DNA from: a virus
Reading direction: 5' to 3' (one strand)
Length of the DNA stretch: 64,000 nucleotides
Virus genome (UHGV): UHGV-0028991
Under the pieces are notes generated by a model. That model worked only from the letters and a program-made list of their open reading frames with translations, was not told the origin of the DNA and did not search any database. Within the stretch, counting starts at the first letter, position 1, and every line of letters starts with the position of its first letter. Positions 2,703-60,838 of this stretch are shown piece after piece. The translations under genes and the position numbers were made by a program.

Positions 2703-3175
2703 CTGAATACCTCCTCATTCGCATTGCTTTGTTGTATTTTTACGGCAGTATTGTCTGTTTGTTGCCAGCTTGATACTTGTTGTTTCATGCGCTGTTGCCA
2801 TTGATAGAAGTTCTTAGCTGCATCATAATACCACTGAACAAGTCCAAGCCCGTCTCCGTCAAGCTGCATTTTTTCATGTTCTCGCATATACCACAATGTA
2901 TAGTGAATGCCAGCAACCGTCATGCCGTCTTTGCACATACGCTGCACATTAGCCCCGAATTTGACCCATGCCGTATTTGGCGCATAGGACTGCACATAAT
3001 CCGTTAATTTCCGCATTGGGGATTTTTCTGCAACGGGCTTGCTTTTTTGTTCATGTGATAATTGCCATTCATTATAGCACTGCTCAGAGCACACATATAT
3101 TCTCGGCTTGATTTCAATTGCAGTAGATTTATCTACTTGTTTGCCACATTGACGGCATTTAACTTTGGATGGCAT
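2699..3175 (-). CDS. hypothetical zinc-ribbon protein
   Basis: 158 aa with N-terminal CRQCGK...CSEQC zinc-ribbon motif. ATGA overlap with the downstream gene. Confidence 0.4.
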   Translation of the reverse strand: MPSKVKCRQCGKQVDKSTAIEIKPRIYVCSEQCYNEWQLSHEQKSKPVAEKSPMRKLTDYVQSYAPNTAWVKFGANVQRMCKDGMTVAGIHYTLWYMREHEKMQLDGDGLGLVQWYYDAAKNFYQWQQRMKQQVSSWQQTDNTAVKIQQSNANEEVFR

Positions 3176-3247
3176 CTAAGTCCTCCCATTTATTTGTTGC
3201 CTGCATTATATCACATATCAAACAATTTGTCAACCCCTATTTTGGAA

Positions 3248-3886
3248 TTATTTTTCTTCCGAAATAATTTCATATTCAAGCAGATAATTATCAACTTGTG
3301 ATTCGGTGAAACATGAGTCAGTTTCCTCAACAGACTTGACCCATATTCCACCGTCATGCACAAGTACAGTATTGTCTTTTACTGTAAATCCGCAATTATA
3401 GCCGACAGATAACCGACATATTTTGTCGCTTATTCCCACGGGCTTTGGCAAATTAAATATTCTCGGTGAATCATAACAGATATTTAACAATCTATTATTG
3501 TCCACCCACTGCCCGTCAATTTGAATGTCTAATATGTCTTGTTGCGAGGTTGATTGCATAAGACGCATGTATTTGGCATTAAAATACACTGTATTGCTCC
3601 ATTCGTTGATATTCCCACCAACTATAACCCTGCTAATTTCATGCGCTCTACGGCAAAAAAAATAGGGTTTATCAACATTGTAAACAATGCCGTCAACTTT
3701 TGGATGCAGTTTAGGCAACATGTCAAGCGCCGCCTTGCATTCATCTGCATTCCATTTACGGCTGCTTGTCTGTGACGTTTGAATTATTTGCCCGTTTATA
3801 TCAAGCGTTGTTTTTATATTGATATGGGTAGAATAAATGCGGCAGACAAATTCTATTAGCTTTCCACAAGCAACAAATTTGTTCAT
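3248..3886 (-). CDS. hypothetical protein
   Basis: 212 aa ORF; no recognisable motif. Confidence 0.4.
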   Translation of the reverse strand: MNKFVACGKLIEFVCRIYSTHINIKTTLDINGQIIQTSQTSSRKWNADECKAALDMLPKLHPKVDGIVYNVDKPYFFCRRAHEISRVIVGGNINEWSNTVYFNAKYMRLMQSTSQQDILDIQIDGQWVDNNRLLNICYDSPRIFNLPKPVGISDKICRLSVGYNCGFTVKDNTVLVHDGGIWVKSVEETDSCFTESQVDNYLLEYEIISEEK

Positions 3887-14291: not shown

Positions 14292-15287
14292 TCAGTTGCT
14301 ATTCTGTTTTTCTAATTCCTTCTGTTTATATGCCGCCCTATATTCATCACGCTTAGCCTCATCACCATCATTCCACCATTTCACATTGATGAAATCAAGG
14401 ACTTTGGCCATACCAAGCCCCTTATCAGGAACCCACTTACCAGATTTATCGTATTTGCCACCACGCATACAATAATCATAGAGTTGTGGGTGAGATACGG
14501 CTAATTGCTGAAATCTATTTGGTTCTTTCTCAAGATGGCATCCATAACCACAAAACACGCAGCCAGTACGTTTGCACTTTGTTGTTGTATATTTGCCATA
14601 CTCATCCAATACAATTTCTCCGTAAACCTCTTTACAATATGGCACATTAAATTTAAGCAGATATTCAAGAACATCCGATTTAGTCCAAAACGACAACGGC
14701 TTAGACACCTTTTTCTTGCCATCAAAGCTATTGCATCCATGTTTAAGCCAATCGGACATGCGAAACATCGATTCTTCCGTCATTGTTCCGACATATAAAT
14801 ATCTGCCTGTTTCGCGCGTGTATCTATCCGTTGGCATCTTTTTCATAATGCTACAACAGTGGTCGCCAATGCGGATATCACATGACGGTTCAAGAAATAT
14901 CTTCCATTTTTCTCTTATCTTGAATCTTCCGCCATTTCCTTCAATTCGCACCTTCTTTAGTTTGTCGCTTTTGGAATTATACATGTCCCAAATAAACCGC
15001 GATTGTTCTTTGCTAATTAACGGGTAGCCATATTGCTTAATTATATCTACAAACGACATTCGTTCGTAGCATCGAGTTTTACGGTTATATGTTTGCGGAT
15101 GTAATATTTCGAGGCGCGCTCTTTTCAGAACAAAATCTCTTAATTCTGGATATTCAAGACCTGTATCACAATACACGTCTGGCACATCAGGATATACTCT
15201 ATGCACTAAATCACTCAGCACGGTTGAGTCAACGCCGCCAGAATTGCTTATTGCAACAGCCCCCCCCCCAACCTTCATGCCATTCAA
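14292..15287 (-). CDS. PP-loop ATPase of the PAPS-reductase / DndC / TtuA-like family, with C-terminal Cys cluster
   Basis: 331 aa. GGGAVAISNSGGVDSTVLSDLV is a PP-loop SGGxDS motif. C-terminal CKRTGCVFCGYGC is a likely Fe-S or zinc site. A G10 tract sits in codons 6 to 9. Confidence 0.55.
   Translation of the reverse strand: MNGMKVGGGAVAISNSGGVDSTVLSDLVHRVYPDVPDVYCDTGLEYPELRDFVLKRARLEILHPQTYNRKTRCYERMSFVDIIKQYGYPLISKEQSRFIWDMYNSKSDKLKKVRIEGNGGRFKIREKWKIFLEPSCDIRIGDHCCSIMKKMPTDRYTRETGRYLYVGTMTEESMFRMSDWLKHGCNSFDGKKKVSKPLSFWTKSDVLEYLLKFNVPYCKEVYGEIVLDEYGKYTTTKCKRTGCVFCGYGCHLEKEPNRFQQLAVSHPQLYDYCMRGGKYDKSGKWVPDKGLGMAKVLDFINVKWWNDGDEAKRDEYRAAYKQKELEKQNSN
15260..15269. repeat. homopolymeric C10/G10 tract within the 5' coding region of the PP-loop ATPase gene
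   Basis: Ten consecutive C on the plus strand, read as gtt ggg ggg ggg gct (VGGGA) on the minus strand, six nt after the ATG at 15276..15278. Confidence 0.9.
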
Positions 15288-16270: not shown

Positions 16271-17341
16271 TCAATAGGTTTTACAAAAATTTTTGTAAAA
16301 ATCTGAAATTCCTGATACCAGTGCGTCAATATCGGACTTTTTTGTATATCGGCTAAATGAAATTCTGATAGTTTCTTCGGCGGTTTCTTTTGAGTAACCA
16401 TAGCCGTCACACAAAACGCGGTAGTCATGTTTGGCAGAGCATGCCGACGCTCCTGAACCGACATAGACATTTTTTGTAGAGAGATATTGCTGCAATGCGT
16501 CCGCGTTAATGCCAGAAAGATAAACAGCATTGATTGCGTCTGTCTTATTTTCTCCATGTCCGCCAAGTACAAACGCACAATCGTCTGTCACTTTAATAAC
16601 CTCTTTGAGGAAATAATCGACAAATCCCTTATAGGTCGCTTCACGATTGCCCGCAATATCCTGCGCCCATTCAAAGGCAGACACCATGGCAGAAATTGAT
16701 GCAACATCAGGAGTGCCGTGAAGAATGCCATAGTTGTTATTCGGGTCGTCTGACAATTCAAACCTCTTGCACAACTCATCACATAACCACAGCACGCCAA
16801 TATGTGGTCCATGGAACTTATGCCCACTGAACCAACAAGCGTCATATTTAAGTTTCTTCTGCGAACAGTCAACTTTACCAATTGCGGCAGTTAAATCACA
16901 ACCGTTAAAATCATATTCGTCCAGACATGAATCATCTGTTCTTTTTGGCAGGAACCAAGGGTTCTCAAACACATCGCCAGTCATTTGATTAACGCGCTGC
17001 CAAAATCTCAATGACACAAGCCTCAACGGCGATTTCTGAGCGACATCCCATACGCTGTCATGCTCTTTTGCATCGGTGCAAATCAAACCATCCCACAGCC
17101 GTCCGAGCATCTCAACGCTCTCTGTTGCGCATCTTGTAAAGATAAATTTGCCCTTGCCACCTGTGTCAAGCAATTCATGTAGCCGTAAACGGCATTTTTT
17201 TAGCGTCTGACGCTCGTTTATAGCATAGGGTGTATTGGCATTGCCCCACAGGTTGTCGCCCCGTACAGCGAAAAATTTTGGCATTGTCGTTGCGGCGTTA
17301 TCGAGATAAACAATGTTATCTTTCATTTTTCTCTCCTTCAA
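16271..17341 (-). CDS. cysteine desulfurase (class V aminotransferase, NifS/IscS-like)
   Basis: 356 aa. N-terminal IVYLDNAATT; FIFTRCATES; SGHKFHGPHIGVLW, where the SGHK lysine is the PLP-binding residue. Confidence 0.6.
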   Translation of the reverse strand: MKERKMKDNIVYLDNAATTMPKFFAVRGDNLWGNANTPYAINERQTLKKCRLRLHELLDTGGKGKFIFTRCATESVEMLGRLWDGLICTDAKEHDSVWDVAQKSPLRLVSLRFWQRVNQMTGDVFENPWFLPKRTDDSCLDEYDFNGCDLTAAIGKVDCSQKKLKYDACWFSGHKFHGPHIGVLWLCDELCKRFELSDDPNNNYGILHGTPDVASISAMVSAFEWAQDIAGNREATYKGFVDYFLKEVIKVTDDCAFVLGGHGENKTDAINAVYLSGINADALQQYLSTKNVYVGSGASACSAKHDYRVLCDGYGYSKETAEETIRISFSRYTKKSDIDALVSGISDFYKNFCKTY

Positions 17342-21730: not shown

Positions 21731-21816
21731 TGAACACTGAAAGACTCGAACTTTCATCCTCCCGTCAGCCTCGTCGCTGAATTTCTATCGGCGCTCTCCC
21801 TTTGAGCTAAGCGTTC
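21731..21816 (-). tRNA. tRNA-like element (86 nt) with canonical acceptor, D- and T-arms but an irregular, long central region; possible type-II tRNA or tRNA pseudogene
   Basis: Minus strand: acceptor GAACGCT/AGTGTTC (7 bp including one G-U pair). D-arm GCTC-AAAGGGA-GAGC. T-arm GAAAG-TTCGAGT-CTTTC with a consensus T-loop. 37 nt lie between the D- and T-arms. No clean 5 bp + 7 nt anticodon arm was found; the best candidate is GCCGA/TAGAAAT/TCAGC with one C-A mismatch. No encoded CCA. Confidence 0.35.
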
Positions 21817-22395: not shown

Positions 22396-22469
22396 TGGTA
22401 CTGTAAGATAGTGTCGAACTATCGTCTATCGGTTATAAGCCGATTGCTCTTCCGTTGAGCTATTACAGC
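22396..22469 (-). tRNA. tRNA with anticodon UAU (reads AUA; tRNA-Ile-like), CCA encoded
   Basis: Minus strand GCTGTAA-TA-GCTC-AACGGAA-GAGC-A-ATCGG-CTTATAA-CCGAT-AGAC-GATAG-TTCGACA-CTATC-TTACAGT-A-CCA. All four stems pair; the first acceptor pair is G-U. Anticodon loop CTTATAA gives anticodon TAT. Confidence 0.6.
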
Positions 22470-37511: not shown

Positions 37512-38402
37512 GTGCCGACAGCAAAAAAGAAAGCTCCGACCAAAAGCATTAGGACGGATAGCAGGAATGTGCGGCTGTGCATTGCCTGTGGGTCAAGAAA
37601 GCCAATAAGCGATTTTTACTCAACGACATCCGTTCCCAACATGCAATTTTTTGTGTGCCGCAGGTGTGGCAAAAGATTACTTAAAGACCACACAGATAAG
37701 GTAGAAAAGCCGATGGCAGCACTGTGGCTTGTTTTGGCGCAAATGGGCGTACCGTTCATTTTAGAGGCGTGGTACGCCGCTTCGGAAATGTATGAAAACG
37801 ACAAAACGGGTGATTTAATTACATTCTACTTGATTTCGCTTGCTAACTTAAATCGCGTATATGAGGGCTTTTGGCAATCAGATGCCATGTTGTCCGACAT
37901 GATAAAGACGGGCGTTGGTGGCGAAGTTAAGGATATTGACCGCCATCTCGCAGACGCAAACAAGTATAGAGCGCGTTGGGGCGATTATACAGCCGATGAT
38001 TGGGATTGGCTTGAAAGAGAATATTTAGACTATACGCGCGACCTCGAAGCCATATCTGTTTCGGCGGAAAAGGCATATAGGTCTTTATGCAAATGCAATT
38101 TGCGCTTTAAGAAAGAAAGCGAGGCAGGCGAAGAAACAAAATCTACAACTGATGAAATCCTGAAATGGATGAAATTGTTGCGCATAGATGATTTCAGAGA
38201 CAATACAAAATCGGACGAAGATAGATACATAGACCACTTGGCATGGAAATTTGAGAATACTGAGCCTGCTGAATTGACGGATGAGGAGCGGTATAAGGAT
38301 GTTAAGGGCTATGAGAAAATATATAATGATTGGATGCGGTCAATGCAGAATATGATTGCGGGGACGAAGAGCTACCCCAATATTCCTAAGGAGCAGTTGT
38401 AA
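37512..38402 (+). CDS. putative terminase small subunit / DNA-packaging accessory protein
   Basis: 296 aa. Lies directly upstream of the terminase large subunit; N-terminal zinc ribbon CIACGSR...CRRCGK. Confidence 0.35.
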   Translation: MPTAKKKAPTKSIRTDSRNVRLCIACGSRKPISDFYSTTSVPNMQFFVCRRCGKRLLKDHTDKVEKPMAALWLVLAQMGVPFILEAWYAASEMYENDKTGDLITFYLISLANLNRVYEGFWQSDAMLSDMIKTGVGGEVKDIDRHLADANKYRARWGDYTADDWDWLEREYLDYTRDLEAISVSAEKAYRSLCKCNLRFKKESEAGEETKSTTDEILKWMKLLRIDDFRDNTKSDEDRYIDHLAWKFENTEPAELTDEERYKDVKGYEKIYNDWMRSMQNMIAGTKSYPNIPKEQL

Positions 38403-39286
38403 TGCCGACCGCAAGAGAAAACGAACAATTCCGCAAGTCCGAAAATGTCAAAAAGTGGATAACTTATTATCGCAGGAATTGGGACTTATTTGCTGAAGAA
38501 GTTCTTGGCATTAAGCTATATCCTGTGCAGAAGCTGAAATTGCACATGATAGGTGTTGCCGACGAATATTGGGACTTTTCGTCTCGTTCAACGGCGAAGT
38601 CTTTTATTGTTGGTGTTGCCGCATTTTGTGCAATGAGTTTATATCCGCATTCAGAAATTGTTGTTACATCATCTTCTATCCCGCAGTCTGCAAGACTTGT
38701 AAGAGATAAGATGATAAAAGAAATCATTAAGAAATATTCGCCATATTTGAAGTATTTGTATGAGAAGGGCTATTTGACAGTTAAAATGCTTGATGAGGGC
38801 GTTTTCGTCTTAACGAACACATTAAATGAATCAACGACAACGGTCGCTGTGTGTTCTGAAAATGCTCGTGGTATGCGTTCCACATTTACGATATATGAAG
38901 AGACGCGATTGCTGAAGAAGTCAATTCTCGACTCTGTATTTGAGCCGATGGGGCACGAGCGTCCTGCGCCGTTTACACTTGACCCTAAGTATAAAACAGA
39001 CAGGTGGATAAAGGCGGCAAAATCTTGCTATATTTCATCTACTCGGTATGAGTGGGAATGGTTTATCAGAGAATACAGAAAATGCGTTGAGGGCTATTAT
39101 ACATCAAAGCACGAGAAGTACATTCCTATGGCAGAGGACATTTATACTGCAATTCAAGAAGGAAGCCGAACATGGGCGGACTATCGAAAGGCAAAGAAGA
39201 AAATGTCCAAAGCGGATTTGAAAAGGTTCGCATTAAACATATTGAATTGCTGGAATACCCTTAGAGTTTTATCAGCTACAACATAA
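38402..39286 (+). CDS. terL: terminase large subunit, N-terminal ATPase segment
   Basis: 294 aa. LYPVQKLKL, SSRSTAKSFIVGVAAF (deviant Walker A, compare T4 gp17 SRQLGKT) and ARGMRSTFTIYEETRLL (Walker B region, compare T4 gp17 ARGNSFAMIYIDE). Confidence 0.6.
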   Translation: MPTARENEQFRKSENVKKWITYYRRNWDLFAEEVLGIKLYPVQKLKLHMIGVADEYWDFSSRSTAKSFIVGVAAFCAMSLYPHSEIVVTSSSIPQSARLVRDKMIKEIIKKYSPYLKYLYEKGYLTVKMLDEGVFVLTNTLNESTTTVAVCSENARGMRSTFTIYEETRLLKKSILDSVFEPMGHERPAPFTLDPKYKTDRWIKAAKSCYISSTRYEWEWFIREYRKCVEGYYTSKHEKYIPMAEDIYTAIQEGSRTWADYRKAKKKMSKADLKRFALNILNCWNTLRVLSATT

Positions 39287-39613
39287 GCATGAAATAAGGC
39301 TAAGTGTGATATGCGAGAAAATGATAGAAATTGGGCAATCAGCAGCGAAGCCTCGAATAGAGGAACGTTCAACGACTATCCCGCAAGGGAGTACACAACA
39401 AGCGATTGGTTGTGGAAGTGGTATGCCTTTGCACAAAAGCAAAGTGAAGATATAGTCTTATCTGCGCGGAAACGCGCAGTCTTTCAAAAAAATGAGAGAA
39501 ACGAGGAGTAGCGACCTATGCTTAAAAGAGTAAATGGGGGACAGCAAGTTGCAAATTGTTTTTGTTTGTCTGCAAACAAACAAATTACCCCATTTGTTCT
39601 TGAATAATAATCT

Positions 39614-40474
39614 TTGTTGCAGGAAGGATTTTATAGCATGAATATTTTTGAGGTTAATGATAAAAATAAATTCTCTTTTAGTTGTATTTATTTATGGCAA
39701 AATCTAATAAATGGGAAGGTTTATGTTGGGCAGACGGTGGATTTTTATGCCCGCATGAAACAATATTTACGCGAAGACACAAGTAGGCGTATCTGCATGG
39801 CTATTAAAAAGTATGGATTTGATAACTTTAGTGTTGAAGTGTTGGAAAGAGACGTGTCGCACCAAAATTTAACACAACGCGAGCAGTATTGGATAGATTT
39901 TTATGATAGTGCCAACGAAGACGTCGGATACAACATATGTCCGGTAGCGGAAAGCACAAGAGGATATCACCACAGAGAAGAAGACAAGAAGAGAATGAGC
40001 GAAATAGCCAAAAAACGTTTCAAAGAACACCCAGAACAAATAAAACGCGGGAAAGAGAATCACATGTTCGGCAAAAAACATTCCGAAGAGACAAAAAAGA
40101 AAATAAGCCAAAGTATAATGGGCAACCAAAATGTAAAAGGCAAAACATGGAAGCTTTCGGAAGAAATATGTCGTCGTAGGTCGGAGAGGATGAAAGGTAA
40201 GAGGAATGGAGTGGGGCACAAATGTCCAGAAAGCGTAAAAGAGCATCTTAGAAGATATAATAAAAATCGAATCTGGACAGAGGAGATGCGAGAGCAATCG
40301 CGGATTGCACATCTTAACATTGGCGGGAAGAAACTGATGTGTGTCGAAACGGGAGTCACTTATGAATCCGTGGCTGAAGCGGGTCGTGCCTTGAACAAGG
40401 ACCCGTCCTCAATTTCTAAGTGTTGTCGCGGGCAACAACGAATCGCATATGGATTTCACTGGCAATATATATAA
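39614..40474 (+). CDS. GIY-YIG homing endonuclease with NUMOD3 repeats
   Basis: 286 aa. FSCIYLWQNLINGKVYVGQTVDFYARMKQY (GIY-YIG). HMFGKKHSEETKKKISQS (NUMOD3-like). It lies between the two terminase halves. Confidence 0.65.
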   Translation: MLQEGFYSMNIFEVNDKNKFSFSCIYLWQNLINGKVYVGQTVDFYARMKQYLREDTSRRICMAIKKYGFDNFSVEVLERDVSHQNLTQREQYWIDFYDSANEDVGYNICPVAESTRGYHHREEDKKRMSEIAKKRFKEHPEQIKRGKENHMFGKKHSEETKKKISQSIMGNQNVKGKTWKLSEEICRRRSERMKGKRNGVGHKCPESVKEHLRRYNKNRIWTEEMREQSRIAHLNIGGKKLMCVETGVTYESVAEAGRALNKDPSSISKCCRGQQRIAYGFHWQYI

Positions 40475-40502: not shown

Positions 40503-41483
40503 ATGTTTTCAATGGAGATGGAAAATGAAACACAGGGTAGTCCCGAAGGTGCATTCTTTAGCCTAAAGAATTTTAAGGACAATCAAGAAATTCCAGAGGC
40601 ATATGTTCCGCCTACCGATACACAAGTGTTGGCGAACACAAAGCCGCCGTTCAGAGAAAAACAAGCGGACGAAATACGGCTTGTCGGCGTTGACTACGCA
40701 TTTGCGAACACAACATTTAAGACGGGATACGGCAACGATAATACAATTATTGAGTGCTGGTCGGCTGTCTGGAAAAACGGTCGGTTCATTCGTAGTCTTG
40801 AATATATGGAACAATGGCCCGCATCGGACAGTACAGGCGCACAATGGCGCGTTCGTGAGCTGTTTTGGGACTATAATGCGGACTTCATTGTAAACGACCT
40901 TAGAGCAGGCGGAGAAACACTATATAACCTTATGACCGAAAAAAGGACGCATCCAAGGCGCGGCTATATGTGGGATTCACGAGGATTGACAGTCGCTCAG
41001 AATTTTAACTATCACCTCGTAACAGAATCAAAGCTTGCCGACTTGCGTATGCGGACGGTCGATAAGGATGCTGTTCCGTGTATTATTCCTGCTCAGGGCT
41101 CGGCACAAAAGAATGGTGTTTGGTGGCTTGCACTTAGAAAGCATCTTGAATGCAATGACATAAAGATGCTTATATCTATGGCAGACAAGCAGCAAGAGCT
41201 TGAAGATTCGGGCGAGTATTTCAAATTGACCTCAGAAGAATTGGCAGATAAGCTTGCCCCTTATGGCGAGACAGACCTGCTTATTCAGGAGGCAATCAAA
41301 CTTAACACAGAAATAAAGGGCGATAACTTATATCTTAAAGAAGACAACAAGGCGACTAAAGACCGTGTTGTTGTTATGTCTTATGTCAACATTGTAATTG
41401 ATAAAATCGAAATGGAATGGAATAAACGCCTGACCAATGACGATGAAGATTATGATATTGACGATTTACAACTTGTATATTAA
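40503..41483 (+). CDS. terL: terminase large subunit, C-terminal nuclease segment
   Basis: 326 aa. IRLVGVDYAFANTTFKTGYGNDNTIIECW matches the start of the terminase RNaseH-like nuclease domain (GxDxA...D.T). Confidence 0.55.
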   Translation: MFSMEMENETQGSPEGAFFSLKNFKDNQEIPEAYVPPTDTQVLANTKPPFREKQADEIRLVGVDYAFANTTFKTGYGNDNTIIECWSAVWKNGRFIRSLEYMEQWPASDSTGAQWRVRELFWDYNADFIVNDLRAGGETLYNLMTEKRTHPRRGYMWDSRGLTVAQNFNYHLVTESKLADLRMRTVDKDAVPCIIPAQGSAQKNGVWWLALRKHLECNDIKMLISMADKQQELEDSGEYFKLTSEELADKLAPYGETDLLIQEAIKLNTEIKGDNLYLKEDNKATKDRVVVMSYVNIVIDKIEMEWNKRLTNDDEDYDIDDLQLVY

Positions 41484-41504: not shown

Positions 41505-43073
41505 GTGAACGGAAAAGAAAGGCTTGAAAGAGAAGAGCTTGAGGACATTATAAAGTTTTCTGAGGGGCTTGCCTTTATGGATTCTAATTACTATTCGCCA
41601 TTTTTATCAAATGAGCTTTTGCAGAATTTGAACACAATTAAGGGCGTGCCGTCTTATGATGCCATTCAAAAGGCATTGGTTGATTTTAATTCGTGTCCTG
41701 AAAATCTGCAAATGTATAATGAGTTCGCGGCTCAATTCAACATGATATTCAGGCGCACCCTGTATTCTTATGTAAATTCTTTGGCGCTTGATCTGTCTTA
41801 TGTGTGTACAAATGCATATACAAAGGCGGACTATGAAAGCGCTGAATATGTAAAAGATAAAGCGCGGGTCGAGGACTTTCTTCTTAACTTTGATTACAAG
41901 AAAGAATTCCATAATGTCTTGATGAATGTCATGCGGCGCGAAACATATTTTACATGGTTTCGCAAATCAAAGCCTGGTAATGGCAACAAGAAAATGCGGT
42001 ATGCATTGCAGATGATGCCACAAGACAGATGTATGATTACGGGCTATTGGGAAAAGGGTTTGCTTTACTCAATGGACATGACATACTTCATGCAGCCGGG
42101 CGTTGATATTGGTGAATTTGACCCCGCTATACGCAAGATGTATGAGCGGGTTATGGAATCTCCAGGCATTGATTATAAACCGTCTGCGCCATTAAATAAG
42201 CGAACTGGCACATATGCATTGTGGGCAGATGCGTCACCTGTTCTCGGAGCCTATGCTTTCAAAATGGACCCATCAACATTTTCGCCCGTGCCGTTCTTGG
42301 CATCTTTTGTTAAGAATATTATTCGGGACGAAGAAGTTGAGCGCTTGCAATACAATAAAGACCTGATTTCGGCATATGCAATTCTTGTCGGAACAATTCG
42401 GCTTTATGATGGTGCAAAATCCGGTGAACAAAAAGACCAGTTTGCAATTAACCTTAAACTGCTTGGGCAGCTTATGGCAAAGGCAAAGGCGGGATTCGGT
42501 TCTCTTGTTAAATTGGGGGCAATGCCTACCGAAGACAATAAACTGTTCCAGTTTGAGGATAAAAACGGCAACATGTATAAAGACCAAGTTGCGACCACTG
42601 CTGCAAGTGGCACTGGCATTAGCCGCGTCATTTATTCTACTGATAGAGTAAGCGCGGCGGAGCTTGAGGCTCAGCAGAACGAAGTTTATCAAACCATGCG
42701 CCCGATGTATGCGCAGTTTAATAACTTTATGGATTTCTTTGTTAATCAAATGACAAAGAAGTATAAGTTCAAGTTTACATTTGACGGCGCGACATATAGA
42801 TATGATCGCACTCAAAGATTTGACCAAATTAACAAATTGGCAGACAGGGGCATTGTTTTGCCGCCATCTGCTTGGGCATCTGTTTTAGGGCAGAACCCCG
42901 CATTGTTTGAGGCGGCTTTGAGAGAGAGCAAGAACACTGGATGGCTTGAGCAATATAGCCAACTTATGGTAAACATCAATACAACTTCGCAGGAATCAGA
43001 AGGTGGCAGACCGCGCGAAGAAGGAGCGGTAGATGCTGCGACCGAGGCAAGCCGCGAATTGTATGCCGATTAA
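41505..43073 (+). CDS. portal protein (putative)
   Basis: 522 aa. Position immediately after the terminase and size typical of portals; acidic C-terminus. Confidence 0.45.
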   Translation: MNGKERLEREELEDIIKFSEGLAFMDSNYYSPFLSNELLQNLNTIKGVPSYDAIQKALVDFNSCPENLQMYNEFAAQFNMIFRRTLYSYVNSLALDLSYVCTNAYTKADYESAEYVKDKARVEDFLLNFDYKKEFHNVLMNVMRRETYFTWFRKSKPGNGNKKMRYALQMMPQDRCMITGYWEKGLLYSMDMTYFMQPGVDIGEFDPAIRKMYERVMESPGIDYKPSAPLNKRTGTYALWADASPVLGAYAFKMDPSTFSPVPFLASFVKNIIRDEEVERLQYNKDLISAYAILVGTIRLYDGAKSGEQKDQFAINLKLLGQLMAKAKAGFGSLVKLGAMPTEDNKLFQFEDKNGNMYKDQVATTAASGTGISRVIYSTDRVSAAELEAQQNEVYQTMRPMYAQFNNFMDFFVNQMTKKYKFKFTFDGATYRYDRTQRFDQINKLADRGIVLPPSAWASVLGQNPALFEAALRESKNTGWLEQYSQLMVNINTTSQESEGGRPREEGAVDAATEASRELYAD

Positions 43074-53661: not shown

Positions 53662-54170
53662 GCCAAACCGTAAACACATTTGGTGCATTGCGCGCCGAGA
53701 TGAAAGAGCGCCTAAAGCCCGTGCTTGAATATGTAATAGAAAAAATTGCGGACTATAACAAAAATGCAATAAGCTTCTCTGTATATGCTAAGGGAAATCC
53801 AGATGTATACGAGCGGACATTTGAATTTCTTGATGCATGGTCAACTGAAGAAAAATTTGAGTCCGACGCATTATATAGCACGCATTTTTATGATTCAAGC
53901 AAAATTAGGACAAGAGGCCGTGGGCAACATACATCTGCCATAGACGGTACAGATATTGCCTATGCGCTTGCCGACATTATCTTTGAAGGCAAGGCGGGCA
54001 GAATATTTGGTCGCGGATTTTGGACTAAACGCAGAAATGCATGGGGCATGCTTGACAAATATGTAAGCAAGCGGCGCCTAAAACAATGGGTTGAGGAAGG
54101 AATGAGACAAGCGGGGCTTGCCTATAAATTCACGGGCAAATACCCCGAGCAATCTCACTATGAAGTATGA
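53658..54170 (+). CDS. hypothetical protein (possible tail assembly chaperone, -1 frame)
   Basis: 170 aa with a TTG start. Its frame would be reached by a -1 shift from the previous gene. Confidence 0.35.
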   Translation: MSQTVNTFGALRAEMKERLKPVLEYVIEKIADYNKNAISFSVYAKGNPDVYERTFEFLDAWSTEEKFESDALYSTHFYDSSKIRTRGRGQHTSAIDGTDIAYALADIIFEGKAGRIFGRGFWTKRRNAWGMLDKYVSKRRLKQWVEEGMRQAGLAYKFTGKYPEQSHYEV

Positions 54171-54664
54171 TCACATTATCACTGGATTGCAGCACATCTT
54201 GCACGGGATATGCGGTTTTCAATGAAGATAAGCTCATTCATTATGGCTGTATTAAGCCCGAGGGAGATAGTTGGCGAGAAAGGCTGACACATGAAGGTGC
54301 GCCATTGTCTGAATTGATTAAGACCTATCGACCCGATAGGTTAATCGTAGAGGAAGTGCCGTTGAAGGCGGCAAATGTTAAAGTGTTGATGATTCTTGGG
54401 GCTGTTCAAGGATATGTTCTTGGGATAGCCGCATCTCATCATGTACCGATTCAATTTGTACTTCCTCAGAAATGGCGTAGCGATATAGGAATTTTTGACG
54501 GCACAAGAGATGGCACGAAGCGAGATGTTCTTAAAAGGAAGTCCGTGGAGAAAGCCAACGAATTGTTCGGACTGGACTTGAATTGGGTGTCTCCGTCAAG
54601 CAGTAAGAACGATGATGATATAAGCGATGCCATTCTTTTGGGTTGGAGCCAAATTCATAAATAA
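54167..54664 (+). CDS. ruvC: RuvC-like Holliday junction resolvase
   Basis: 165 aa. ITLSLDCSTSCTGYAVF aligns with RuvC ILGIDPGSRVTGYGV. DRLIVEEVPL aligns with DYFAIEQVF. C-terminal DISDAILLG aligns with DAADALAIA. Confidence 0.6.
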   Translation: MITLSLDCSTSCTGYAVFNEDKLIHYGCIKPEGDSWRERLTHEGAPLSELIKTYRPDRLIVEEVPLKAANVKVLMILGAVQGYVLGIAASHHVPIQFVLPQKWRSDIGIFDGTRDGTKRDVLKRKSVEKANELFGLDLNWVSPSSSKNDDDISDAILLGWSQIHK

Positions 54665-54678
54665 AAGGATGGTGAATT

Positions 54679-55107
54679 ATGGCGAATAAAAACACGAGCT
54701 GGAATATTGGCGTAGGTATTGAGATAAAGACAAGCACAAGCGAAATTCAAAAGAAATTGAATGAAGCGGCGAAAAATGTCAATATCAATATCAAGGCAAA
54801 AGGGGCTAAGGAAGCATCTGACGGAATAAGCAATCTGTCAAAGAACATGAACGAAGCCTCGTCCAGCGCGAAGAATTTTGAATTAACATATCAAGCGGCA
54901 AACATGATTATGGAGAAGAGCATAGAAATTATTAGGTCTATGGTCTCTGAAGTCTATACTATGAATGCCGCGCAGGTCGAATTAGCAAAGGTCACAGATT
55001 TGTCCGGCGAATCAATGGACGAATATGTGAGCAAGTTGACCGACATGGGAGCAGAAGTTGCTAAGACGGGTAAACTATGGACGGGAGCCCGTGTGATGGG
55101 ATGGTAA
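54679..55107 (+). CDS. tail tape measure protein, coding segment 1
   Basis: 142 aa. Typical N-terminal region of a tape measure protein (...ELAKVTDLSGESMDEYVSKLTDMGAEVAKTG); ends at a stop. Confidence 0.45.
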   Translation: MANKNTSWNIGVGIEIKTSTSEIQKKLNEAAKNVNINIKAKGAKEASDGISNLSKNMNEASSSAKNFELTYQAANMIMEKSIEIIRSMVSEVYTMNAAQVELAKVTDLSGESMDEYVSKLTDMGAEVAKTGKLWTGARVMGW

Positions 55108-55398
55108 ACCAGCACAGAGAATTGTTCAAAACCCAGTAAAACCTAAAGCCTGTTTAACTACAACATGGGGATGAAATAAGCCCAAGTGTGAATGTGGGAA
55201 ACTGTTAAAAATAAGCAGGATGGCATATGGTCGAAAGACCTAAGTGCAATTTATCCCGAATATTATACATTATTTGGGACAAACAATGGTAGATTGGGCG
55301 CGAAGTCCCGAACAGGGATGTGTCAAGAGACTCTATAAGTTCGACCCCTCCAAATTAAACAGGGTGAAGAAATAGTCCAGAATATTTTGAAAAAGGTA

Positions 55399-55427
55399 TT
55401 GACAATCTAAAAGTTATGTGTTATAAT
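55399..55427 (+). promoter_or_regulatory. consensus sigma70 promoter inside the first tape-measure intervening sequence
   Basis: TTGACA, 17 nt spacer, TATAAT, with a TG extended -10. Followed by an AAAGGTGG ribosome-binding site and ATG 55445. Confidence 0.6.
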
Positions 55428-55444
55428 GGCATCAACAAAGAAAG

Positions 55445-55690
55445 GTGGGCTTGATTATGTTGTTAATTGCAGTTCCTTTGATGATGCTTTATTGCGTCTG
55501 TTATGGCATTGCTTGTTTCTTCAGGCATGTTGTTTTGGGCATCCCTTTTGATAAGGACGTTGCCAAGAAAAACAATCCCGAGCAATATAAAAAATGGGAA
55601 GAAGAAGATAGGCAGGCTGCAGAGCAGTACAGAAAAGAAGAAAAAGAGCATAACGATTGGGGATTTATTGATTACTCCAAGAAAGATTGA
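55445..55690 (+). CDS. small membrane protein with highly charged C-terminus (holin-like or moron)
   Basis: 81 aa. MGLIMLLIAVPLMMLYCVCYGIACFF spans one or two TM segments; the C-terminal K/E-rich tail follows. It is driven by the promoter above. Confidence 0.45.
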   Translation: MGLIMLLIAVPLMMLYCVCYGIACFFRHVVLGIPFDKDVAKKNNPEQYKKWEEEDRQAAEQYRKEEKEHNDWGFIDYSKKD

Positions 55691-55703
55691 ATAAAAGTCC
55701 CAG

Positions 55704-55910
55704 ATGGTGGAAAGCGCTGCCCAATTTGCGAAAGCTGGATTTAATGAAACCGATGCTGCGCAATTAGCGAAAGTTTCCTCCATGTACCAAAACATTGCCG
55801 ATGAGCAACTTTCGGCGGGCGAAGCATCTGAGTTTATTATTTCTCAGATGAAAGCATTTAATATTACTGCTGAGGAAAGCTTACATATTGCTGATGCGGT
55901 TTACTTTTAA
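55704..55910 (+). CDS. tail tape measure protein, coding segment 2
   Basis: AAQFAKAGFNETDAAQLAKVSSMYQNIADEQLSAGEASEFIISQMKAFNITAEESLHIADAV matches the start of the TP901-type tape-measure core. Confidence 0.45.
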   Translation: MVESAAQFAKAGFNETDAAQLAKVSSMYQNIADEQLSAGEASEFIISQMKAFNITAEESLHIADAVYF

Positions 55911-56277
55911 TTGGCCGCTACGAGGTGAATTGTCGGGGACGAGGGTTCAGCGCCCTATCTGCGCAATTTTATGCGTGGATGCCTAAAGATTTGAACACCA
56001 ACCTATCATGGTGACATAGATGGGGGCTTAGAGTAATTAACTAAGGCATGGTAAAAGGTTCAAATATATATGGTCAATCCGCAACTAAGCGTCTGCATTG
56101 CAGATGAAAGCTCACAGACTATCCCATAGGTCTTAACAGACAATAGGAGTACGGCCCAAGCCAAGGGTGGGTGAGAACCCCTTAAATGGAAGCGCCTCGC
56201 TTTGGTATTTTACCAAGGAAGATATAGTCGGGTCTTATAAGAAATTTATAAGCGTTTGAATATTCAAACGGTCGTAG

Positions 56278-56424
56278 TTGGCGGCTACGGCAAACTTATA
56301 TCGCAATAACGTATCAAATAATATGTCTGTTTCTTCAGCAGATTTAGCTCGAAACCTCGGAAATATGTCCGCCGCAATGTCTGTCGGCGGGAACACGATG
56401 GAAGAGAGCATTGGCTTAGGTTAA
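56278..56424 (+). CDS. tail tape measure protein, coding segment 3
   Basis: Open frame ...NVSNNMSVSSADLARNLGNMSAAMSVGGNTMEESIGLG continues the tape-measure core motif; flanked by stops. Confidence 0.4.
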   Translation: MAATANLYRNNVSNNMSVSSADLARNLGNMSAAMSVGGNTMEESIGLG

Positions 56425-56695
56425 TAGGTCAATTAAAAACCTATAAATTGACGGGAAGTTCCTTAGAGCTCTATATACTAAACCGTATTAGTAATAATGC
56501 GGCGGAGCAAGTAATGACTGCTGTATAGTAACAAATATAGAGATTGGATAATCCGCAGCAAGTTATCAATAGGTCATTGATAACTGTTCAACGACCAGTA
56601 AGCCCTACTAATTCAGTAGGCATACTCGCAAGCGCGGGGAAACATAGGTGAAAAAGATATGGTCTAATCTCTGTCGAAAGGCAGAGGGCTAATAA

Positions 56696-59686
56696 AGCCG
56701 TTTAGAGAGTAGCGTCTCTAAGCAAATAAATTATGTATTAACTGGCATTACCGAGATTACTCGTTCAGCGGCATCCGCATCTCGTGCATTAGTCACAATC
56801 CAAAGCAGATTTAATCAGATTGTAGATGAATCTTCAAGCACTGGTCAGAATCTGTTAAAATGGTACACAAAGCACGGAATTGCAGTTAAGGATGATGCTG
56901 GGCAGTTAAGGTCGCTGTATGATGTTATGTCCGACCTTGCGCCTAAGTGGAACTCACTTACCAAGAATGAGCAATCTTATTTCATGCAACAGGCGGCGGG
57001 TGCCCGGCAATCTCAAAATCTCGCCGCATTGCTTTCTAACTTTAAGGGCGTTCAAGAAGCAACTGCCCTTGCATATGATTCTTCAGGTTCGGCAGCAGCA
57101 GAAAATGCAAAAGTCCTTGAATCTCTTGATGCAAAAACAACCGCATTAAAAGCAACATGGCAAGATTTTGCAAACAAAACCATTGACAGCGAATTAGTTA
57201 AGTCTTTGCTTAACTTGGCTAATGGCGCGTTAAAAGTATTGAACACCGAAGCAGGCAGAACTTTAACACAATTTGTTTTGCTGAGCGGCGTTTTCACTGG
57301 GCTCGGCGGAATTATTGCGCAGGTCATTCCGGTCGCAATAAAATCGATAAAAGCATTTACATCTGTTTTGGCTGGCGCGACAACTGGCGTAAAAGCATTG
57401 CAGGCGTCTGTGCCTGTCATTGGCATTGCAATGGCGGCGCTAACGGTTATGATAGGGCTTGTTAAAGATGCTTATGATGCGCAGTATGGCACAATCAACA
57501 AGATAAACAAGTCCATAGAAACAATTAACGCCACCTATACCGATGCCACAAATGTTGCTAAGGCAAATGCCGAACAGGCAAAATATTTGGTTGGGGTAAT
57601 TTCAGACCTTAACAAGGTTGAGAATATGTCTACGAGTGAGGCGTATAAGTACAAAAGCGCTGTAGACCAACTTAATAAAATTTACCCCGACTTGAATCTC
57701 AGCATTGGCGAACACACTGGCAAAATCCAAGAAGATACTGGTGCAATTTATAAACGCATCGAAGCGATGAAGCAAGAGGCGCTTCAAGCGGCGTTGCAAG
57801 AAAAGCAAGCGGCTTATTATGGGCAAATAATAGAGTCAAAAGCATCTCGCGAATCTGCAGGCGATGAACTACGCGCTGAGATACAAGAGCTCCAAGAAAA
57901 GCTAAAACAACTCAGAGACGCGTTCGGATTCGATATAACGGGACTCGGAGAAAACCTTGATGTCGATGTCTCTTTAATGGATACGGATAGTCTGATTCGC
58001 TTTTACGAGAATTTCCTTCGATATGGAACATTCCCGAGCTATATGTCAAAAGAGATTAGCGCTACCATTGAAGAAATAAGGCAGTATGACGAGGCGATTG
58101 AAAACGCGGAAGGAAAATTAGAAGGAGCTAATGATGCGGCTCAATCGCTCGGGGAAACTGTTGTAAACCTTAACACCCAAGCAGGCAAAAATGCAGGAGC
58201 AACAAAAACTCAGCGAGATAATGTTGACAATCTCGTAAAAGCACAAAATGCATTAAACAAGGCAATTCAGGACTACAATGCTTATGGCGGTTTGCAATCT
58301 GAAACGCAAGAAGCATTAGACGAAGCGTTGCCTGGTCTAAACGAACTGCTTTATGACGAAACAGGCGCGTTGACGTCTGCTGGTAAAGCCGCGTTGCGCG
58401 GAAGCAAGGAATTGGCGCAATTCGTTCTGTTGCAAAAACAAGAGGAATTACAGGCTCAGAAAACGGCATTGTCGCACGCCGAAGCCGCAAAAGCAGAGGC
58501 GCTAAGATTCAGGACAAGGCAGAGTTTAATGGGGCAAACACAGCTTTTGTCAATAGCTGAAGAAGCCGAAGCTGAAGCAGCCCGACAGGATGCATTAGCA
58601 ACCGCTGCAGAACAGAACATAAAAAATATCGAAGATGAGATTGCGTGGCTGGAACAACTGCTCGCAACATACAGCTCTGGTTCGAGTGCCGCATCTTCCG
58701 CCGCCGACGCTTACAAAAAAGCATTTACAGACTGGCTTGCATATAAAGACCATCAACTTGCAATGGACGAAATCACAGAAGAGCAGTATTATGCTGAGCT
58801 TACTGAAATGGTCGATAAATTCTTTAAGGGCAGAGCTGAATATCAAGAAGAATATTGGCAATACTCTGAAAAGATTTATGCGTATGAAAAGAAGCGCATG
58901 CAAGAGCTGGTCGAAGAATCGACTAAGGCGGTCGAGGACGCAGTTGATAAAATCAACGAAAAGTACGATTCTGAGTTGTCGCGGCTTGAAGAAGTCAACG
59001 ATGCCCTGTCCGACCAAATTGAATACGAGAAACTGCTCGATGAAATGGCTAAGGCAAGGGAGCAGAAAAAGCTTGTATACAAAGACGGTCGATTCCAGTA
59101 TGTGCAAGATGTGGATGCAATATCTGCCGCGCAGGCTAAGCTTGATGAATATAATCGCAACAAGGGCTTAGAAGCAAGTAAAGCTGATATTGAAGCCCGC
59201 AGAAAAGCAGAGGTCAGACAGACCATTCTCGACAAGATGCAGGCTAATAGCGCAGCATGGGCAACATCAAGTAGTCCCGCTGAGCGTGAGGCATTGCATA
59301 ATGCAAATGTTGAGCTGGCGAAACTGCTTGAAGATAATTCGACCTATGATGCCGCAACGGGCAAATGGTCAAGCTATGCGGGCGGCACACTTGGTGCGGC
59401 TGGCGGAATGAGCCTTGTCGGAGAGAATGGTCCCGAAATGCGTATTCTTAATCGCGGCGACGGCATACTCACAAGTGGCGTTACTAAGAATTTGTTCGCA
59501 TGGGGCAGCACGTCTCCGAGCGATTTTGTATCTGCACTCAAGGGCTTAATGGGCTTTAAGCTTGGCAATTCCAGCAACACTACTGTGAATGTCAGCAACC
59601 TTGAATTGCCCAATGTAACAAATGCAAGAGAGTTTGTAACCGGGCTGAAAAATCTTGCACTTCAATATGCTTACGAGAGGGGATAA
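56696..59686 (+). CDS. tail tape measure protein, main coding segment 4
   Basis: The frame is open from 56696 (...LTGITEITRSAASASRALVTIQSRFNQIV...DDAGQLRSLYDVMSDLAPKW) with no in-frame start before M at 56927. Long coiled-coil body; C-terminal GGTLGAAGG. Confidence 0.55.
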   Translation, partial: SRLESSVSKQINYVLTGITEITRSAASASRALVTIQSRFNQIVDESSSTGQNLLKWYTKHGIAVKDDAGQLRSLYDVMSDLAPKWNSLTKNEQSYFMQQAAGARQSQNLAALLSNFKGVQEATALAYDSSGSAAAENAKVLESLDAKTTALKATWQDFANKTIDSELVKSLLNLANGALKVLNTEAGRTLTQFVLLSGVFTGLGGIIAQVIPVAIKSIKAFTSVLAGATTGVKALQASVPVIGIAMAALTVMIGLVKDAYDAQYGTINKINKSIETINATYTDATNVAKANAEQAKYLVGVISDLNKVENMSTSEAYKYKSAVDQLNKIYPDLNLSIGEHTGKIQEDTGAIYKRIEAMKQEALQAALQEKQAAYYGQIIESKASRESAGDELRAEIQELQEKLKQLRDAFGFDITGLGENLDVDVSLMDTDSLIRFYENFLRYGTFPSYMSKEISATIEEIRQYDEAIENAEGKLEGANDAAQSLGETVVNLNTQAGKNAGATKTQRDNVDNLVKAQNALNKAIQDYNAYGGLQSETQEALDEALPGLNELLYDETGALTSAGKAALRGSKELAQFVLLQKQEELQAQKTALSHAEAAKAEALRFRTRQSLMGQTQLLSIAEEAEAEAARQDALATAAEQNIKNIEDEIAWLEQLLATYSSGSSAASSAADAYKKAFTDWLAYKDHQLAMDEITEEQYYAELTEMVDKFFKGRAEYQEEYWQYSEKIYAYEKKRMQELVEESTKAVEDAVDKINEKYDSELSRLEEVNDALSDQIEYEKLLDEMAKAREQKKLVYKDGRFQYVQDVDAISAAQAKLDEYNRNKGLEASKADIEARRKAEVRQTILDKMQANSAAWATSSSPAEREALHNANVELAKLLEDNSTYDAATGKWSSYAGGTLGAAGGMSLVGENGPEMRILNRGDGILTSGVTKNLFAWGSTSPSDFVSALKGLMGFKLGNSSNTTVNVSNLELPNVTNAREFVTGLKNLALQYAYERG

Positions 59687-59935
59687 TTGGGTATAATGGA
59701 CGAGCATAAAGAATTATTCGATGCAATTACAATTCTGATTGACAAGAAAATGCAGAAATGCACACAAGTATTCAATGGAATTGTGACCCTCTCTTTAAAT
59801 ACAAATGTCACTGTCAATGGCAAGGCATATAAATTGCCCGTGTATGGCGGGAACGTATCTGCCCTTGTCGATAGCACCGTTGTTAAAGTAATCGTCCCAC
59901 AGGGCGATTTTTCGCAAGCATTCATACTTATTTAA
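59687..59935 (+). CDS. hypothetical protein
   Basis: 82 aa ORF immediately after the tape measure gene. Confidence 0.35.
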   Translation: MGIMDEHKELFDAITILIDKKMQKCTQVFNGIVTLSLNTNVTVNGKAYKLPVYGGNVSALVDSTVVKVIVPQGDFSQAFILI

Positions 59936-59956
59936 GAATAAACGGAGGTAATAGTT

Positions 59957-60838
59957 ATGGCAAACATGAACGCAATTGATGTTTCGTTGTATCAGACTAT
60001 TTATGACGCGAACGCACTGAAGCAGGACGGCATTAAGCTGTGCATGATTAAGGCTTCGCAGGGCAGATATTTGAACGGCTATGGTAGCTTCTTCAAAGAC
60101 AGAAAAATGGACGAGCACGCACAGAAATGCATTAACGCCCATTTGCCAATTGGCTTCTATCATTTTCTTTGCGCATTTAATGTACAGGAAGCCAAGCAGG
60201 AAGCCAAGAAGTTTTTGAAAGCAATTAAGCCGTATGCGCAGTATGTGTCTTATGTGGCTCTCGACTGCGAGAATTATAACAACACGGCGTTGTTGTGTCA
60301 GAATAGAACGCAGTTGACCGAGTCTTGTAACGCATTTATGAAAATTTGCGAAGACGAGGGCTATCTGCCCATGCTGTATACAAACCCCGACCATCTGAGA
60401 AACAAGCTTTATGCCGAGCGCATTAAGTACCCGCTGTGGGTAGCACTGTACGGTGAGGCTAAGCCGCAGTATGACGCAATGATTATGTGGCAGAAGGGTC
60501 CTGTTAGTCCGAACGGTGTGACGGCTAATACTGACGGAAACATCTGCTATATTGCGGATGCCGCACTCGCTGTTGTAGAACTTGCAGAAAAGGGATTTAT
60601 TGCATCTCCGACATATTGGATTAACCAACTTGATAATGTTAAGTGGTTGCCTGAATTGTTTGTTCAGGTAAACGGCGTGTTTAATTATCGCATTGGTCGT
60701 TCTAAGACGGTCGATGAAGCATGCAACTATATGAAAGAGCAGGGCGCAATGAACAGCCCTGAATACTGGATTGCACAGTCCAAAAAGGTCAAGCACCTTG
60801 CCGATTTGCTGAAGAACTTTGGTGGCGGCAGAAAATAA
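59957..60838 (+). CDS. GH25-family muramidase (endolysin) with C-terminal repeated cell-wall-binding motifs
   Basis: 293 aa. IDVSLYQTIYDANALKQDGIKLCMIKASQG...GFYHF is a GH25 signature. The C-terminal repeats are YWINQLDNVKWLPELF and EYWIAQSKKVKHLADLL. Confidence 0.6.
   Translation: MANMNAIDVSLYQTIYDANALKQDGIKLCMIKASQGRYLNGYGSFFKDRKMDEHAQKCINAHLPIGFYHFLCAFNVQEAKQEAKKFLKAIKPYAQYVSYVALDCENYNNTALLCQNRTQLTESCNAFMKICEDEGYLPMLYTNPDHLRNKLYAERIKYPLWVALYGEAKPQYDAMIMWQKGPVSPNGVTANTDGNICYIADAALAVVELAEKGFIASPTYWINQLDNVKWLPELFVQVNGVFNYRIGRSKTVDEACNYMKEQGAMNSPEYWIAQSKKVKHLADLLKNFGGGRK

Follow-up and report, generated by a model that had tools for sequence, protein, structure and literature searches.

The tape measure protein (TMP) gene at positions 54679-59686 of viral genome UHGV-0028991, within the 64,000 nucleotide (nt) stretch analysed here (the window), is a single gene on the + strand that is interrupted by three inserts. 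We consider it very likely, with a probability of about 90%, that its precursor RNA contains three unrelated group I introns, the first of which also carries a gene cassette. Each intron would fold into a ribozyme whose internal guide base-pairs with the final nucleotides of the upstream exon (P1) and the first ones of the downstream exon (P10), and two guanosine-initiated transesterifications would excise the intron and ligate the exons to give a TMP of 1219 amino acids (aa). Rfam matches, splice-site features, natural empty sites and covariation agree on three group I introns in one structural gene, as a first, sequence-only reading of this DNA had proposed.

The open reading frame (ORF) list and a three-frame translation confirm four segments (54679..55107, 55704..55910, 56278..56424 and 56927..59686) that encode, in order, consecutive pieces of a TP901-type TMP core. 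They are separated by inserts of ordinary GC content (0.39, 0.44 and 0.39) containing stops in the TMP frame. The boundaries assigned in the sequence-only reading are ORF edges and not exon edges. Exon 1 (54679-55071, aa 1-131, ending ...AEVAKTG), placed by tblastn and alignment to uninterrupted homologs, is followed by intron 1 (55072-55697), exon 2 (55698-55900, SQMVESAAQFAKAGF...HIADA plus GT of a Val codon), intron 2 (55901-56303), exon 3 (56304-56416, the C of this Val codon, NNVSNNMSVSSADLARNLGNMSAAMSVGGNTMEESIG and the T of a Leu codon), intron 3 (56417-56735) and exon 4 (56736-59686, TA of the Leu codon and LTGITEITRSA... through the stop). The group I introns are 626, 403 and 319 nt long, rather than the 596, 367 and 271 nt obtained from ORF edges. 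The ribozyme core of intron 1 spans 55072-55400 and is followed by a promoter and a cargo ORF; the ORF list contains no gene-like ORF for intron 2, which is IA2-like, or for intron 3. The segment tails 'KLWTGARVMGW' (segment 1), 'YF' (segment 2) and 'G' (segment 3), together with the first nine residues of segment 3, 'LAATANLYR', are intron-encoded and not part of the TMP. The long open frame that had been described ahead of the first ATG of the last segment does exist (from about 56696), but its part upstream of 56736 is likewise intron-encoded.

A search of the provisional spliced protein against 5.8 billion proteins returned uninterrupted PF10145 TMPs that extend across the junctions. The junctions given above are the only ones that align gap-free with uninterrupted homologs; earlier provisional junctions, which produced a 9 aa insertion and a 2 aa deletion relative to the homologs, were dropped. 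The spliced coding sequence comprises 3660 nt without internal stop, its 1219 aa replacing an earlier estimate of about 1250. Scored against TIGR01760 (tape_meas_TP901), the spliced product reaches 98 bits over a single stretch, residues 85-406 (cutoff 28.8), and against PF10145 it reaches 77.4 bits (cutoff 33.2), with each of the separate ORF segments remaining below cutoff for both models. With slashes marking splice sites, the predicted DNA junctions are GCTAAGACGGGT/TCCCAGATGGTG, GCTGATGCGGT/CAATAACGTATC and AGCATTGGCT/TATTAACTGGC and the predicted junction peptides AKTG/SQMVE, ADAV/NNVS and SIGL/LTGI. All three introns are located within TMP codons 131-237 of the conserved TP901-type domain, and in-frame stop codons are found 12, 3 and 2 codons into introns 1, 2 and 3, respectively. 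An early stop after the 5' splice site is an arrangement known from other phage introns; here, such stops would halt ribosomes entering unspliced RNA.

Ribozyme structure of the three introns

At the gathering score of the Rfam group I model RF00028 (50 bits), a whole-window scan identifies 56365-56686 with 51.5 bits, corresponding to intron 3. A sensitive scan of 54900-56900 adds intron 2 with 34.6 bits (E 1.3e-6) and intron 1 with 22.5 bits (E 1e-3 to 5e-3), the latter as a partial alignment to the P8/J8-7/P7'/P9 part of the model that was not improved by an Rfam search of the isolated intron 1 region. The check suggested alongside the sequence-only reading, group I models on each insert, therefore yields a match on all three, with the gathering score reached by intron 3 only. 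All three 5' splice sites are preceded by a U that forms a U.G wobble in P1, and all three introns end in G (55697, 56303 and 56735). P1 and P10 can be written for each intron, with the P10 guide adjoining the internal guide sequence (IGS), and both helices covary with synonymous exon positions at site 1 and site 2. P6, P7, J8/7 and P9 were identified in all three introns and P4 coordinates in introns 2 and 3. The three TMP introns give no blastn matches to each other, so none is a copy of another. Stops in all relevant frames, the lack of a group II match and the precise absence of the inserts in relatives led us to discard inteins, group II introns and programmed frameshifting.

Introns 2 and 3 show the usual IA-type elements. 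In intron 2, P1 pairs GCGGU 55896-900 with GCCGC 55914-18 and shows compensatory changes with relative L033, and the P10 guide AUUG 55910-13 pairs with exon CAAU 56304-07 over 4 base pairs (bp), a better P10 being present in L032. The core consists of P3 (55921-25 / 56195-99), P4 (55931-37 / 56078-83), P7 (56115-21 with 56225-29) and P8 (56202-16), followed by P9 (56234-52), P9.1 (56253-70) and P9.2 (56271-91). In intron 3, P1 is formed by AUUGGCU 56410-16 and GGUCAAU 56427-33 and a 7 bp P10 by guide GUUAAUA 56420-26 and exon UAUUAAC 56736-42. P3 (56439-44 / 56644-49), P4 (56449-55 / 56552-57), P6 (56562-84), P7 (56592-97 with 56660-64) and P9 (56669-86) complete its core.

Because the Rfam model fits intron 1 poorly, relatives were used to derive its structure. 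A profile scan of IMG/VR yielded 42 TMP loci, and a family alignment of 11 divergent ribozyme parts was analysed with RNAalifold. Compensatory changes are present in 28 of the 55 predicted pairs, distributed over P1, P2, P5 and its extension, a GNRA hairpin, P6, P7 and P8. P1 pairs exon ACGGGU 55066-71 with IGS GCCCGU 55087-92, placing the U.G pair at the 5' splice site, and a 4 bp P10 connects guide GGGA 55083-86 with exon 2 UCCC 55698-701. Relatives carry compensatory versions of both helices (exon ACCGGU with IGS GCCGGU; P10 UCAGA/UCUGA). The P2 hairpin at 55093..55115 (GUGAUGG...CCAGCAC; alignment columns 31-38 / 48-55) encloses the conserved loop GAUGGUAAA and shows double-sided changes in six of its seven pairs. 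The core at 55305..55378 contains the P6 hairpin (55305-19), P8 (55344-65) and J8/7 (GAAGAAAUAGUC, 55366-77). P7, formed by GAGACU 55327-32 with a bulged A and AGUCC 55374-78, also covaries: depending on the lineage, the pair that closes it beside the bulged nucleotide is G-C, C-G or U-A. The P9 hairpin (55381..55400) has a GAAA loop, and relatives possess other stems capped by a GAAA-type loop. Over 56 nt, the P5 extension shares 80% identity with the 77-bit group I intron located at 39.2 kb in the window.

A candidate P4 for intron 1, UGUUC/GAACA, similar to the Rfam consensus AAUUGCGGG, was rejected on the grounds that GAACA is located in the loop of the covarying P6 hairpin; this position is not conserved and reads GAUGA or GAAGA in relatives. 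The window and L001 share an insertion of ca. 29 nt (UCCCGAAUAUUAUACAUUAUUUGGGA) in intron 1 whose self-contained hairpin (55254-55279) is missing from L004-L006 and looks like an optional peripheral stem. Loci L011/L024 and L035 seemingly possess C instead of U before the 5' splice site of site 1 (ACUGGC/ and ACCGGC/, respectively), reflecting either an unusual non-wobble cleavage-site pair (C-G in L035, C.A in L011/L024) or a one-nucleotide boundary error.

The cassette within intron 1

Directly after P9, intron 1 contains a sigma-70/sigma-A-type promoter (55399..55427) made up of TTGACA, a 17 nt spacer and TATAAT, with an extended -10 TG at -15/-14, which represents the only 12/12 match in 54000-60000. 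It is followed by a ribosome-binding site (RBS; AAAGGUGGG, 55441-55449) and the cargo ORF (55457..55690), encoding 77 aa from ATG 55457 or 81 aa from GTG 55445. The sequence-only reading had assigned an expression cassette to the first insert, and promoter, RBS and ORF are indeed all present. Judged by its sequence, the promoter is presumably active, and the cargo is probably made independently of late transcription.

The cargo protein combines an N-terminal transmembrane (TM) helix, a charged helix and a C-terminal NDWGFID motif. An AlphaFold (AF2) model with a pLDDT of 70 contains helices only, namely a TM helix (residues 5-26) and a charged helix (41-67), followed by a disordered tail. With no nuclease match and no nuclease fold in this model, the predicted protein is not a nuclease. 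The ratio of nonsynonymous to synonymous divergence (pN/pS) ranges from 0 to 0.17 in a comparison of five close copies, in which pS reaches 0.35. Each of the 12 divergent site-1 introns compared contains an ORF (61-148 aa) whose product has at least one TM helix, a charged tail and a C-terminal [YW]G.I[DE] motif; these proteins are only 11-32% identical. TTGAC(A/T) is found after the P9 region in all 12 and a TGn extended -10 in 11 of them, and no ORF-less site-1 intron was seen among those examined. Some site-1 introns, in L016 (~3085-3500) and L021, contain two tandem small TM-protein ORFs.

The cargo protein has no match in PHROGs and none above cutoff in Pfam. Its profile retrieved 51 clusters from 5.8 billion proteins, all of them unnamed, and one further family member, encoded on a 95-kb contig, again follows TMP exon 1 and precedes the remainder of that gene. 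A TM helix and a charged tail, as expected of a holin, are present, with no holin match in Pfam or PHROGs and no position next to the GH25 gene (59957-60838), and we do not classify the protein as a holin. A family defined by a TM anchor and the C-terminal [YW]G.I[DE] motif may function in superinfection exclusion or in membrane or lysis control, and we suggest, with low confidence, a superinfection-exclusion or host-membrane factor.

A helix that would loop out the cassette and return the 3' splice site to the core can be drawn between CAAUCU 55403..55408 and AGAUUG 55684-55689 (6 bp). Its 3' strand contains the ORF stop codon and lies 8 nt ahead of the 3' splice site, with 7 nt left unpaired after the AAGAUUGA segment that ends at 55690. 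Helices of different sequence occupy the same position in other lineages and measure 16 bp in L016/L021, 11-12 bp in L028/L030 and 9 bp in L018. Across lineages, the 5' strand begins 0-4 nt into the -35 box, and 6-9 nt separate the end of the 3' strand from the 3' splice site. We retain the putative helix on these positional and comparative grounds. Because RNA initiated at the internal promoter would not include the 5' strand, the helix is expected in the full precursor only.

Intron alleles among relatives and competing explanations

Syntenic relatives encode TMPs 88-98% identical to that of the window, several of them on 38-72 kb viral contigs with intact exons, and share the gene order YomU-like tube, RuvC, TMP and GH25. 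Relatives also contain an extra group I intron, 1b (63.4 bits), located 8 codons downstream of intron 1 and not found in the window (L005:2925-3997 and L003:1-954; also L029, L030, L047 and L051). The intron 1b ORF (264-272 aa) combines Zn-finger-like CxxC pairs with a DUF2726 domain bearing an 'EVDGxxHY' nuclease-like motif and is a probable homing endonuclease. The window carries introns 1, 2 and 3 and lacks 1b; L001 carries introns 1 and 2 and lacks 1b and 3; L002, whose contig begins inside intron 2, carries intron 2 and lacks 3; L003, whose contig begins downstream of the intron 1 site, carries 1b and 2 and lacks 3; L004 and L006 carry introns 1 and 3 and lack 1b and 2; and L005 carries 1, 1b and 3 and lacks 2.

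For introns 2 and 3, the intron-less alleles define the junctions with single-nucleotide precision. In L004-L006, the empty site 2 reads GCGGTT-AAT-AAT-GTC-AGC and in L001-L003 the empty site 3 reads ATTGG(A/T)CTCCTCAC(C/T)GG(C/T), leaving the protein unchanged in both cases (ADAVNNVS and SIGLLTGI, respectively). Intron 1 is found in every close relative with a contig covering the site and is absent only from more distant relatives. In L008-L010 (59% identity and the same synteny), the TMP is continuous across sites 1, 2 and 3, and their continuity at site 1 ('GKSRSQMVEAATE') fixes junction 1. Site 131/132, the position of intron 1, is occupied in many TMPs only 28-60% identical to that of the window.

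At least seven TMP sites are occupied in the family (residues 131/132, 139/140, 199/200, 237, 254/255, 325/326 and 367/368), many of them yielding group I matches of 28-65 bits. Further group I introns are located at 254/255, 325/326 and 367/368 in window numbering (L008:6057-6402, L034, L040-L042, L048 and L052), and some relatives' TMP genes appear to hold at least four inserts. The intron load of the window, which had been called unusually high for a tape measure gene, is therefore normal for this lineage, where other TMP genes also contain three or more inserts; TMP introns at three sites and three-intron phage genes have been published as well.

Synonymous differences cluster at the insertion points, with ATTGGACTCCTCACCGGC versus ATTGGCT/TATTAACTGGC at site 3 and GCGGTTAATAATGTCAGCAATAAC versus GCGGT/CAATAACGTATCAAATAAT at site 2, a pattern that fits co-conversion or adaptation of the exons to P1 and P10. 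Synonymous divergence also jumps from exon to exon (54679-56416): relative to L001, pS is 0.05 in exon 1, 0.30 in exon 2 and 0.47 in exon 3, which suggests that introns mark recombination breakpoints. This exon-to-exon comparison was made with L001, L004 and L006. Sites 2 and 3 exist as intron-plus and intron-minus alleles among relatives with nearly identical TMPs, and the ORF-less introns 2 and 3 would be gained and lost between such phages, probably via recombination and co-conversion of flanking exon sequence. Intron 1, in contrast, would be fixed in the lineage and double as a gene carrier. We tentatively propose, at slightly less than even odds, that the site-1 intron is a long-lived, vertically inherited gene carrier and not a homing element, and that its ribozyme allows a small membrane protein with its own promoter to be accommodated harmlessly within an essential tail gene. 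If so, the embedded cargo would be hard to lose because only its precise deletion would be viable.

Beyond these relatives, a megablast search of the region against 50,697 GenBank phages returned no match, and tblastn recovered only uninterrupted TMPs of at most 38% identity, the nearest from Enterocloster phages of ~100 kb. Related loci are found in gut metagenome-assembled genomes labelled Clostridia, Coprobacillaceae or Eubacteriales.

Among the outcomes that would overturn it, the sequence-only reading had listed a decayed pseudogene in a defective prophage; the inserts would then be junk and the TMP would be inactivated by stops and frame shifts. TMP-frame stops in each insert and segments in different frames are what such decay would leave behind, but purifying selection acts on every exon in the spliced frame, with pN/pS relative to relatives of 0.12-0.24 for exon 1, 0.09-0.18 for exon 2, 0.05-0.12 for exon 3 and 0.12-0.19 for exon 4 (first 190 aa), and this range of 0.05-0.24 rules decay out. 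The relatives moreover retain the architecture with intact exons, exact removal of the inserts restores a gap-free TMP and the inserts themselves possess covarying ribozyme structure, so that the probability we assign to a pseudogene is negligible. Gene fission at site 1 would instead make insert 1 a non-splicing cassette, composed of promoter and small gene, that separates two proteins, an N-terminal one of 142 aa and another that begins at Met134 (MVESAAQ...), with only inserts 2 and 3 being introns. We regard this as very unlikely. It is in line with the weak Rfam score of insert 1 (22.5 bits), with an ATG 2 codons into exon 2, with the many homologs that gene callers begin at the Met134 equivalent (P0004, P0006-8, P0010 and P0012) and with the lack of an empty site 1 in close relatives. 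Met134 is, however, also conserved in uninterrupted TMPs (TEMIQAAT, QAMVEAAT) and is not preceded by a Shine-Dalgarno sequence. In addition, compensatory changes maintain the U.G wobble of P1, P10, the terminal G, the bulged P7 and the J8/7 consensus of insert 1, its P5 extension matches bona fide group I introns and the insert occupies an identical codon boundary in the divergent TMPs described above. The intron 1 ORF could also be non-functional, a chance frame or decaying remnant accompanied by a coincidental promoter match, as might be supposed for a small, low-complexity, charged protein with no homolog of known function, no PHROG hit and no Pfam score above cutoff. Selection on the five close copies, the TM helices and [YW]G.I[DE] motif retained by every site-1 intron examined despite protein identities of only 11-32%, the conserved -35 and extended -10 elements and the lack of any ORF-less copy make this highly improbable.

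Several observations weigh against three spliced introns with a functional cassette. Introns 1 and 2 score below the Rfam gathering threshold, an exhaustive helix search of intron 1 recovered neither P3 nor P4, and no P8 hairpin was found in intron 3. No homing endonuclease was detected in introns 1, 2 or 3 based on the ORF list and on Pfam and PHROG scans of the intron 1 ORF, and the mobility of introns 2 and 3 consequently lacks an explanation. The 6 bp looping helix of the window (-6.1 kcal/mol) is no better than shuffled controls. The cargo role is a guess because the protein matches nothing known. Finally, splicing itself is what we infer from the anatomy, junctions, conservation, covariation and empty sites observed in the sequences.

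Neighbouring features and comparison with known systems

The window contains a fourth group I intron at 39210-39479 (+), detected with 77 bits in the whole-window Rfam scan and belonging to an element that extends to 40474. A homing endonuclease ORF with GIY-YIG and NUMOD3 domains (39614-40474) follows the intron, which splits a gene (ORFs 38402-39286 and 40503-41483) directly upstream of the portal gene (41505-43073). Judged by position only, the split gene probably encodes the terminase large subunit. Within the tail module, a RuvC-like Holliday-junction resolvase gene (54167-54664, +) is located directly upstream of the TMP gene, an arrangement conserved in relatives. A GH25 muramidase gene (59957-60838, +), assigned through a Pfam call on the relatives' 293-aa ortholog, is found among the tail genes just after the TMP gene; no holin-like ORF is adjacent to it and the enzyme may be a virion-associated lysin rather than an endolysin. 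A PAPS-reductase-like protein (14292-15287, -) and a class-V, cysteine-desulfurase-like aminotransferase (16271-17341, -) are encoded close together and may constitute a DNA or nucleotide modification pair. The window further contains two tRNA genes on the - strand (21731-21816, 86 nt, 44.8 bits; 22399-22469, 66.7 bits) and genes for a PolIII alpha subunit, DnaB and RecJ. In the subset of ORFs that was scanned, no integrase was detected.

Gene callers split the interrupted TMP gene into four or five ORFs and miss its TP901 domain, a problem that affects many gut-phage contigs. At the same time, the lineage represents a natural series of intron-plus and intron-minus alleles, with at least seven sites within ~240 codons of one structural gene, useful for investigating how phage introns are gained and lost, as well as co-conversion and recombination breakpoints. 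Confirmation of the cargo would show that group I introns carry ordinary accessory genes, complete with promoters, in addition to homing endonucleases and transposases, and would offer a testable example of a selfish ribozyme and an accessory gene stabilising each other.

The layout of intron 1 is shared with the group I (IA2) introns of T4 td, nrdB and nrdD (sunY), which loop an ORF out of a peripheral helix, possess their own intron promoter and contain a stop codon soon after the 5' splice site. The T4 ORFs encode the homing endonucleases I-TevI, II and III, whereas the cargo here is a 77-aa membrane protein without a nuclease fold. IStrons are also organised in a related manner, with the ribozyme core at the 5' end and insertion sequence (IS) genes at the 3' end. 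They are described as a group I intron core with IS200/605 genes behind it (PMC4227781). In both systems, the ribozyme allows a foreign gene cassette to be inserted without harm to the host gene. The IStron cargo of transposase and TnpB confers mobility, whereas the cargo here has no evident mobility function and is found at a single conserved site.

With regard to function, the cargo resembles phage morons and Ltp, whose target is the TMP, in being a small membrane-associated protein with its own sigma-A-type promoter in a late operon; the TMP link is thematic and the functional parallel speculative. Ltp of phage TP-J34 is a superinfection-exclusion membrane protein (PMC3952083). The two proteins show no sequence similarity, and Ltp is a surface-exposed lipoprotein while the tail of the cargo is predicted to be cytoplasmic.

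The closest precedent is found in Bacillus cereus-group prophages, where, according to the available excerpt of the report, the tape measure gene contains the group I introns TMP-IVS1, -IVS2 and -IVS3 (Tourasse & Kolsto 2008, PMC2504315). Both systems feature a TMP longer than 1200 aa whose gene is interrupted at several sites by IA-type group I introns; related phages differ in which introns they possess, P1 and P10 are adapted to the respective site and a homing endonuclease is lacking from many copies. The excerpt names at most two introns per gene, compared with three here and apparently at least four in relatives, and the present family, with at least seven occupied sites, also differs in its hosts, which are uncultured gut Bacillota phages. 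Promoter-driven membrane-protein cargo as seen in the site-1 introns is not mentioned in that excerpt. Three introns in one phage gene are reported for Twort orf142 (Landthaler & Shub 1999, as cited in PMC11878797), and Bastillevirinae DNA polymerase and terminase genes contain up to three group I introns (PMC11878797). Like the TMP gene, these phage genes hold up to three self-splicing introns each, and orf142 is also a tail gene (tail tube). Otherwise the host genes differ, their introns are ORF-less or carry homing endonucleases, and those of the Bastillevirinae survey are located in DNA-metabolism and terminase genes, not tail genes. In the limited literature covered, which leaves novelty unproven, we found no mention of a conserved membrane-protein cargo that is not a nuclease and is expressed from its own promoter. 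Multi-intron TMP genes are already known, and the cargo family of intron 1 is the new part: should the gene-carrier proposal be true, no conserved cargo family other than nucleases and transposases would have been reported earlier for phage group I introns.

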